Shown here in pieces: positions 50,700 through 52,396 of a stretch of 64,000 bases of DNA. The notes below the pieces were generated by a model. It worked only from the letters and a program-made list of their open reading frames with translations. It was not told the DNA's origin and did no database searches. The stretch's first letter is position 1. Each line of letters begins with the position of its first letter. A program made the position numbers and the translations under genes. This DNA comes from Elusimicrobiota bacterium (GTDB lineage: Bacteria > Elusimicrobiota > Elusimicrobia > UBA1565 > JACRDR01), in contig JAPLKK010000017.1 of the NCBI GenBank assembly GCA_026388115.1, positions 15,667 to 79,666 of the forward strand. Reading direction: 5' to 3'.

Positions 50700-51334
50700 G
50701 GATCAAGATCTGCGGCGTGACGACCGCCGGCGACGCCTATATGGCCAGCTCGTTGGGCGCGTGGGCCGTCGGCCTGATCTTCGTCCCCTCGAGCCCCCGC
50801 GCGCTCGACGTCGCCGCGGCCCGCCTCATCCGCAGCGCCATCGGCCCGGACACCCTCGCGATCGGCGTCTTCCAGGACGCCGAGCCCGCTTTCATCCAGC
50901 GCGCGATCTCAGCGTGCCGCCTGGACGCCGTGCAGCTCCACGGGTCCGAGACGCCCGAGGCTTGCGCCTCGGCGGCCGTGCCGGTATATAAGGGGGTGCC
51001 TCTCGCTTCCGCGGCCGACTTGGCTGCCTTGGACCCGTACGCCGGCCGGGTGGCGGGATTCCTGGTCGAGACGGTCCGGCGGCTGCCGGCCGGCCGCGAG
51101 GCCATCGACGAGCGCGAACGGCGCGCCCGCTGGGCGCTGGTCAGGCAGGCCGGGCTCTCCATGGCCGTCATTTTGGCGGGAGAGCTTACGCCGGAGAATG
51201 TCGGCGAGGCGGTCCGGCTGGCCGAGCCGGCGGGCGTAGACGTCTGCGGCGGCGTGGAAGCCTCGCCGGGCCTGAAAGACCCGGGCAAGCTGAAGGCGTT
51301 CTTCGACGCCGTGCGGGCGGTGGAAAGGACATGA
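50696..51334 (+). CDS. trpF: Phosphoribosylanthranilate isomerase.
   Basis: [38 protein letters not shown]...QLHGSE. Overlaps trpC by 4 nt. Confidence 0.8.
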
Positions 51335-52396
51335 AGGGATACTTCGGGCCTTACGGGGGGCGCTTCGTCCCAGAGACTCTGATGGAGCCCCTGCTGGAGC
51401 TCGAGCGCGCCTACGCGGCCGCGCGGAAGGACCCCGCCTTCCAGCGCGAGCTGGCGGCGCTGCTCCGCAGTTTCGTCGGCCGGCCCACGGCGCTGACCTT
51501 CGCCGAGAGGCTTACGGCGGAACTGGGCGGCGCGCGCGTGTATCTCAAGCGAGAGGACCTGGCGCACACCGGAGCGCACAAGATCAACAACACGGTCGGG
51601 CAGGCGCTGCTCGCGCGGCGCATGGGCAAGAGCCGCCTCATCGCCGAGACCGGCGCCGGCCAGCACGGCGTCGCCAGCGCCACCGCCTGTGCCCTGTTTG
51701 ACCTGCCCTGCCGGGTCTACATGGGATCCGAGGACATTCGCCGAGGCCCTGCGCGAGTGGTCGGCCTCCTCGCGCGATACCTATTACCTGCTCGTCTCGG
51801 CGCTCGGGCCGCATCCCTACCCCACGATCGTCCGCGATTTCCAAGCCGTGATCGGGAGGGAGGCGCGGCGCCAGATCCTGGCGGCCGAGGGCCGGCTGCC
51901 CGACGAGCTCGTCGCCTGCGTGGGCGGAGGCTCGAACGCCATCGGCCTTTTCTTCGCCTTCCTCAAAGACCGCTCGGTGCGCATGACCGGCATCGAGGCC
52001 GGCGGGCTCGGGATCGCCGGCGGCCGCCACGCGGCGCGCTTCCAGGGAGGCGCTCCGGGCGTGCTGCACGGCACCTATACCTTCCTGCTCCAGGACGCGA
52101 GCGGGCAGGTGCGCCCGACGCACAGCGTGGCGGCGGGGCTGGACTATCCGGCGGTGGGGCCCGAGCACGCCTGGCTCAGAGACCGCGGCCGCGTCCGCTA
52201 CGGCTTCGCCACCGACCGGCAGGCCCGCGAGGCGTTCCATCTATTGTGCCGCACCGAGGGTATCCTTCCGGCGCTGGAGAGCGCACACGCCCTGGCTTAC
52301 GTGATCGAGAGGGCGCCCAAGATGCGCAAGAAGGAGATCCTGCTCATGAACCTCTCGGGAAGGGGGGATAAGGACCTGGAGGCCTGGCCGGCATGA
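51331..52396 (+). pseudogene. trpB: Tryptophan synthase beta chain, disrupted. The reading frame switches at about 51735-51745, and about 28 aa (roughly 85 nt) are missing relative to canonical TrpB.
   Basis: Frame 1 (51331..) reads [15 protein letters not shown]...[11 protein letters not shown]...[12 protein letters not shown] and then nonsense. Frame 2 (51689..) resumes with [10 protein letters not shown]...[17 protein letters not shown]...[10 protein letters not shown]...SGRGDKDL. In E. coli TrpB the segment [29 protein letters not shown] separates EDVER from NEALRDW; that segment is absent here. Confidence 0.7.

Follow-up and report, generated by a model that had tools for sequence, protein, structure and literature searches.

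The interrupted trpB gene of an otherwise intact tryptophan operon: a probable local assembly error or a recent deletion

The locus considered here raises the question of why one gene of a complete tryptophan operon, trpB, has lost its reading frame. It lies in the window (the whole stretch of 64 kb of DNA that was analysed, with a high GC content of 69 per cent) between trpF and trpA, and shares ATGA overlaps with both neighbours, at 51331–51334 and 52393–52396. The preliminary description set three readings side by side without favouring any of them: an assembly error, pseudogenisation, or compensation by a second trpB copy. We favour a local assembly error, to which we give a probability of roughly 60 per cent, on the basis of a patch of foreign sequence, a branch point in the assembly graph and recurrent lesions in related scaffolds; the break would then not be a property of the organism. 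The idea of a long-standing pseudogene is not sustained. Whether it is an artefact or a recent deletion allele, the break is of an ordinary kind.

The trp operon and the break in trpB

The other trp genes had been described as intact and tightly coupled, which is confirmed: trpE, trpG, trpD, trpC, trpF and trpA, together with the gene for DAHP synthase, have full-length Pfam matches and overlap or abut one another (table 1). Amino acid identity to the relatives is 95–97 per cent for trpE, 99 per cent for trpG and 99.7 per cent for DAHP synthase, for which a contig with 99.9 per cent identity is present in a second run, SRR25046533. The exact TrpF protein is also found in the Logan k-mer assembly of run SRR20698641, and the exact TrpA protein on one of its contigs (L001).

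Table 1. Position and content of the features of the trp operon and of the trpB break; coordinates are those of the window.
Feature	Position	Strand	Remarks
trpE (anthranilate synthase component I), intact	46933..48324	+	Pfam Chorismate_bind 3-257/257, E 1e-87
trpG (glutamine amidotransferase), intact	48321..48905	+	Pfam GATase 1-187/190
trpD (anthranilate phosphoribosyltransferase), intact	48890..49912	+	Pfam Glycos_transf_3 3-253/253
trpC (indole-3-glycerol-phosphate synthase), intact	49899..50699	+	Pfam IGPS 1-254/254
trpF (PRA isomerase), intact	50696..51334	+	Pfam PRAI 1-192/193
trpB 5' part, frame 1	51331..51741	+	137 codons; Pfam PALP positions 4-86/295
Ultra-conserved DNA block	51634..51671	+	no difference from L003 and L088 over 38 nt
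Divergent allele patch, directly 5' of the junction	51672..51741	+	48/70 = 69% nt identity to L003/L005
Junction	51741..51742	+	92 nt present in all relatives missing; CG microhomology 2 nt
trpB 3' part, frame 2	51743..52396	+	217 codons plus stop; Pfam PALP positions 135-294/295
Out-of-frame continuation of frame 1	51742..52371	+	209 Arg/Gly/Pro-rich codons, TAA 52369-52371
trpA (tryptophan synthase alpha), intact	52393..53190	+	Pfam Trp_syntA 2-237/259
DAHP synthase (ferredoxin-like N-domain type), intact, final cluster gene	53184..54245	+	Pfam DAHP_synth_1, DAHP_snth_FXD

The best TrpB homologues are proteins of 385 aa encoded on metagenome contigs (P0001 and P0121; loci L003, L005 and L006). 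They are 94 per cent identical over the aligned residues, and the three loci have the same gene order as the window. The named homologues, at 68–81 per cent identity, come from Elusimicrobia MAGs, which gives a hint of the lineage and no more, and a scan of reference genomes with conserved TrpB patterns gave 71 per cent identity for the best among the matches listed.

The frame of trpB (51331–52396) had been reported to switch at about 51735–51745. This is borne out: the gene runs in frame 1 from the ATG at 51331 to the residues YMGSEDIRR, with the final native codon at 51739–51741, and continues in frame 2 from 51743, where a stretch of 11 residues begins, to the TGA at 52394–52396. When the 64 kb window was searched by tblastn with the intact protein P0001, two pieces only were obtained, residues 1–138 in frame 1 (90 per cent identity) and residues 153–384 in frame 2 (97 per cent amino acid identity), and no second trpB or other trpB-like sequence was detected in it. 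Alignment of the DNA with the intact loci L003, L005 and L006 places a single gap of 92 nt, or 30 codons plus 2 nt, after position 51741; the CG microhomology allows this junction to be shifted by 2 nt. A deletion is therefore present, as had been proposed, but its size must be corrected from about 85 nt and about 28 residues to 92 nt and 30 residues.

The missing peptide corresponds to residues 139–168 of P0001. This segment is kept in nine of the nine aligned homologues, with zero length variation and, judged from these alignments, the loss of such a length-invariant segment of 30 residues is far beyond chance. P0001 matches the Salmonella and Pyrococcus TrpB structures over nearly its full length. 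The E. coli numbering used here was registered on the catalytic lysine, K84 of P0001 being set equal to K87 of E. coli; the equivalent lysine is likewise K87 in the Salmonella protein and K82 in that of Pyrococcus. The missing stretch then presumably represents E. coli residues 142–171, within the COMM domain and with Lys167 included. The COMM domain comprises about residues 102–189 (Salmonella/E. coli numbering), and Lys167 of TrpB has a role in communication between the alpha and beta subunits. Of the attributes of TrpB1-type proteins (PLP fold type II), the window gene lacks both the complete COMM domain, from which 30 residues are absent, and the continuous frame of about 385–400 codons. 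The frame-1 part retains the PLP-lysine motif (H-x-G-A-H-K) as HTGAHKINN, and the frame-2 part has the glycine-rich phosphate loop GGGSNAIG as well as the motif SGRGDKD; HTGAHKINN and GGGSNAIG fall in invariant columns of the alignment. A TrpB without residues 142–171 would not be expected to give a working beta subunit, even with the frame restored.

Frame 1 remains open past the junction, so that a gene caller would report a fusion ORF of 346 aa. Neither this ORF nor the frame-2 ORF of 235 aa has an exact match on record, and a search with the out-of-frame peptide returned only unrelated frameshifted trpB calls of other organisms (P0242–P0244). A 37-mer across the junction is absent from the JGI metagenome contigs, and the homologue search with the 3' part of trpB yielded no near-identical fragments covering 51668–52280.

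Two other candidate explanations were rejected. A split gene does not agree with the frame-2 ORF, which has only an unconvincing internal GTG start, or with the absence of the invariant segment. Slippage between two AGGAC pentamers 90 nt apart predicts an in-frame deletion of 90 nt and a different junction.

The sequence around the junction and lesions in related scaffolds

The nucleotide identity of trpB to its relatives is 91 per cent for 51331–51671 and 93 per cent for 51742–52396, but only 69 per cent in the 70-nt patch that adjoins the junction. The peptide encoded by the patch (24 residues) is still TrpB-like. It includes a 12-residue motif of the ATACAL/ATACALF type, as seen in TrpB of other phyla, whereas the eleven closest relatives have VA(A/T)AAAAA(R/H/K)FG at this site. 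No donor of the patch was found, a 24-mer from it being absent from the JGI metagenome contigs. The 38-nt block upstream of the patch encodes the most conserved motif of TrpB, (L) and the 11 residues that follow it. On the other side, a conserved block starts directly at the right edge of the deletion, 51742; L089, from a related species, has the same sequence over 21 nt, and in L003 the identity extends over 33 nt from 51749.

Two contigs of the Logan assembly of SRR20698641 are 100 per cent identical to the window. One of them (L002) corresponds to 47456–51667 and ends in the 38-nt conserved block, five bases before the start of the patch; the other, L001, corresponds to 52281–53496 and begins in the PALESAHA block. 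The interval 51668–52280, with the junction, is covered by neither. The ends of these contigs at 51667 and 52281 indicate that the graph branches there in a sample that holds the window sequence. An assembly error is expected to lie where the graph branches or contigs end, next to sequence from a different strain or species, and this combination is found at the junction.

Similar lesions occur in two scaffolds of another assembly project, L088 and L089, which were traced via the truncated TrpB calls P0126 and P0129 that surfaced in the homologue search with the trpB 3' part. Scaffold L088 (1089–1943) has deletions of 20 nt and 90 nt at trpB positions other than that of the window. About 10–50 nt before each of them, the sequence switches to the SNPs of another strain; relative to the intact loci L003, L005 and L006, only about 20 aligned sites of L088 differ. 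In the trpB gene of scaffold L089 (1372–2121), 10 N stand in place of 5 nt, and there is a clean deletion of 92 nt, the right edge of which maps to position ~52282 of the window, the start of the Logan contig L001. Its counterpart L090, from another assembly, is intact and matches L089 across trpB except for the lesions and two point mismatches. The deletions of L088 and L089 are bordered by microhomologies of 2–5 nt, and no comparable lesions were found outside trpB in the called genes of these scaffolds. They represent either a pipeline artefact or recurrent deletions specific to trpB.

The state of selection on the gene was assessed against L003 and L005. The dN/dS ratio is 0.19 for the 5' part of trpB and 0.09 for the 3' part, with values of 0.02–0.29 for the intact neighbours, and neither half contains a further stop or frameshift. 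An established pseudogene would be marked by several disabling mutations and a dN/dS approaching 1, neither of which is seen. A single lesion in a gene under purifying selection thus gives no support to an old pseudogene or to a long adaptation to life without TrpB.

Assembly error, recent deletion and other readings

The evidence is best accommodated by a chimeric join made in a multi-strain metagenome, because the lesion looks fresh and sits in the gene with the most conserved DNA blocks, the patch looks foreign, the edges lie at the ends of independent contigs or within a few bases of them, sister scaffolds have N gaps and similar lesions, and intact counterparts of these scaffolds exist in other assemblies. 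The population of the window occurs together with close strains and other species, and identical blocks of 20–38 nt are shared among their trpB genes at conserved motifs. The assembly graph would branch at the 38-nt conserved block, and the contig would take in about 70 nt of another trpB allele, the patch at 51672–51741. The foreign-allele branch would then dead-end and be joined to the next native contig, which begins at the EALREW block (51742), so that about 162 native nt would be swapped for 70 foreign nt, which shortens the gene by 92 nt and shifts its frame. The junction would accordingly lack read support, and the organism would have a normal TrpB of 385 aa and be a tryptophan prototroph. 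Local assembly errors and strain-chimeric ORFs have been documented in metagenome scaffolds (Chen et al. 2020, Genome Res, PMC7111523). The present case shares with them a lesion that affects a conserved gene, in an uncultured organism whose strains co-occur, the position of this lesion between the stops of an independent assembly, the adjoining sequence from another allele, and the existence of sister scaffolds that have N gaps and comparable deletions next to closely matching assemblies that are intact. The defining mark of such errors is that no perfectly matching read or read pair spans the junction, a lack that is predicted here. Some observations argue against an assembly error. In a plain de Bruijn-graph contig no junction can arise without read support; should the window be a contig of this type, its junction must be present in at least some molecules. 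The consensus quality is high in the rest of the window, where, for example, an ORF of 28.6 kb is uninterrupted. Moreover, a patch next to a deletion is also the signature to be expected if foreign DNA was imported naturally and one of its ends was joined illegitimately, and the lesions of L088 and L089, from another project, need not share the cause of the break in the window. If the break is an artefact, metabolic reconstructions would wrongly score the organism as a tryptophan auxotroph. The case would also define an error signature for conserved genes in multi-strain metagenomes: a foreign patch that starts within a conserved block, a few bases beyond a contig break, and after it a deletion of less than about 100 nt.

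The main rival is that the deletion allele is real, very recent and perhaps not fixed; it deserves consideration, although we regard it as the less likely of the two. A diverged trpB fragment would have been imported with one illegitimate end; in the form proposed here, pairing would be anchored in the 38-nt conserved block and the other end joined at the CG microhomology, about 162 nt being replaced by 70 nt. The two borders, one in an identical block and one at a microhomology of 2 nt, agree with such an event, and the patchy divergence along the whole operon shows that diverged strains often recombine at this locus. The breaks in the Logan contigs show more than one variant across trpB in the sample, and a graph assembler requires read support for the k-mers of the junction. 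The out-of-frame ORF stops 21 nt before the ATG of trpA, so that the expression of trpA need not suffer. On the other hand, a microhomology of 2 nt is no better than chance, no donor of the patch was found in the JGI metagenome contigs, and the junction was found in no other assembly by ORF look-ups, the peptide search or the JGI 37-mer. There is no sign of relaxed selection, and the three further fresh trpB deletions of 20–92 nt would call for independent events confined to trpB, the other contigs of the relatives being intact. Homology-facilitated, or short-patch, illegitimate recombination is described in naturally transformable bacteria (Acinetobacter, Streptococcus and Pseudomonas stutzeri). 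The term homology-facilitated illegitimate recombination also appears in PMC6382021. The window resembles this process in having one border of perfect identity, one border with a tiny microhomology and a foreign patch in place of a longer native stretch; it departs from it in that the anchor is only about 38 nt long, the microhomology is 2 nt and no donor was found. A real deletion would leave a 346-aa fusion without beta activity and a need for external tryptophan, and the indole made by TrpA might be released. It would amount to one fresh loss-of-function allele in amino acid biosynthesis, of modest ecological interest and with no new mechanism. That the deletion of the window and those of 20, 90 and 92 nt in the relatives are all real, the lineage repeatedly losing TrpB alone by patch import and illegitimate joining, seems improbable to us. 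In that case, trpA and the upstream pathway would be kept, sub-populations would release indole and depend on their neighbours for tryptophan, and a polymorphism of the Black-Queen type would be maintained alongside intact alleles.

A long-standing pseudogene, with tryptophan auxotrophy or indole overflow, or a second trpB (trpB2) located elsewhere, is in our opinion very improbable. Only the frame break itself speaks for it. It is contradicted by the single lesion, the absence of stops in either half and the dN/dS of 0.09–0.19, and by the closest relatives, at about 94 per cent amino acid identity, which have an intact trpB. The six other trp genes and DAHP synthase are intact and tightly overlapped, which is unexpected if the final step was lost long ago, and the 64 kb contain no second trpB. 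The earlier suggestion of pseudogenisation linked to Trp auxotrophy or an indole lifestyle, which had been called notable, is therefore not supported as a long-standing state and survives only in the form of a very recent, perhaps unfixed deletion allele: both halves of the gene are free of secondary lesions and evolve at low dN/dS. Tryptophan synthase is naturally inactivated in host-restricted bacteria, as exemplified by the trpBA lesions of ocular Chlamydia trachomatis. The likeness lies in a single disabling lesion in tryptophan synthase; in ocular C. trachomatis, however, the lesion is fixed in the lineage and tied to the host niche, whereas for the window the relatives are intact, the pathway is otherwise complete and no decay is seen. 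Recoding, in which a programmed +1 ribosomal frameshift at the junction would produce a functional shortened TrpB, is hardly credible. It agrees with both halves being open and with nothing more; the junction sequence ATT CGC CGA GGC is neither slippery nor homopolymeric, and the product would be without residues 142–171 (Lys167 and part of the COMM domain), which are length-invariant in all the aligned homologues.

Strain differences and other features of the window

Several differences between the window and its relatives concern the operon outside the break. The C-terminus of trpD is 13 aa shorter than in L003, with a gap of 40 nt relative to L003 after 49899. The window is also without the 65-nt spacer that separates trpF from trpB in L003, L005 and L006 (between 51328 and 51329 of the window; 5645–5709 in L003), the trpF stop and the trpB start being joined in the ATGA overlap, and trpF and trpB also overlap in the more distant L090. 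Both absences are real strain differences, since the Logan contig L002 reproduces the two stretches. At the start of the operon, the first 4 nt of trpE overlap the end of a MotB/OmpA-like gene (46238–46936), which is itself preceded by a MotA-like gene (45479–46222); this arrangement, which is the same in L003, leaves no room for a leader peptide or attenuator ahead of trpE.

Among the related scaffolds, L089 (~985–1046) and L090 (2190–2251) differ by 15 mismatches within a stretch of some 60 nt where trpF ends. These contigs are near-identical elsewhere, and the mismatches constitute a short mosaic patch like that of the window. In L006 (3401–4461), the gene for DAHP synthase is split into two called ORFs (146 and 207 aa); L006 is otherwise a close match of L005, and the split implies that it has a small frameshift.

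The first part of the window is occupied by two adjoining giant ORFs on the + strand, 104–8968 (2954 codons) and 8953–37614 (9553 codons). Both consist of repeats of about 1.7 kb that have diverged to 60–80 per cent identity, and they have Pfam matches to beta-propeller-like repeats (DUF6242, BNR/Sortilin-like and NHL), Ig-like, fn3 and Laminin_G_3 domains. They probably encode a huge surface or adhesion protein. At only 60–80 per cent identity, these repeats give no indication of whether long or short reads were used.

Downstream, an insertion of 1537 bp (54246–55782) separates the genes for DAHP synthase and EPSP synthase; its GC content is 55–63 per cent, compared with about 70–75 per cent in the flanks. 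It carries a gene (54633–55739) of the Fic/DOC family with DUF4172 and HTH domains. The insertion is absent from L003 and L088, in which the equivalent of 54245 is joined directly to that of 55783, and L005 and L006 have a different sequence there, so that the site looks like a strain-variable spot.
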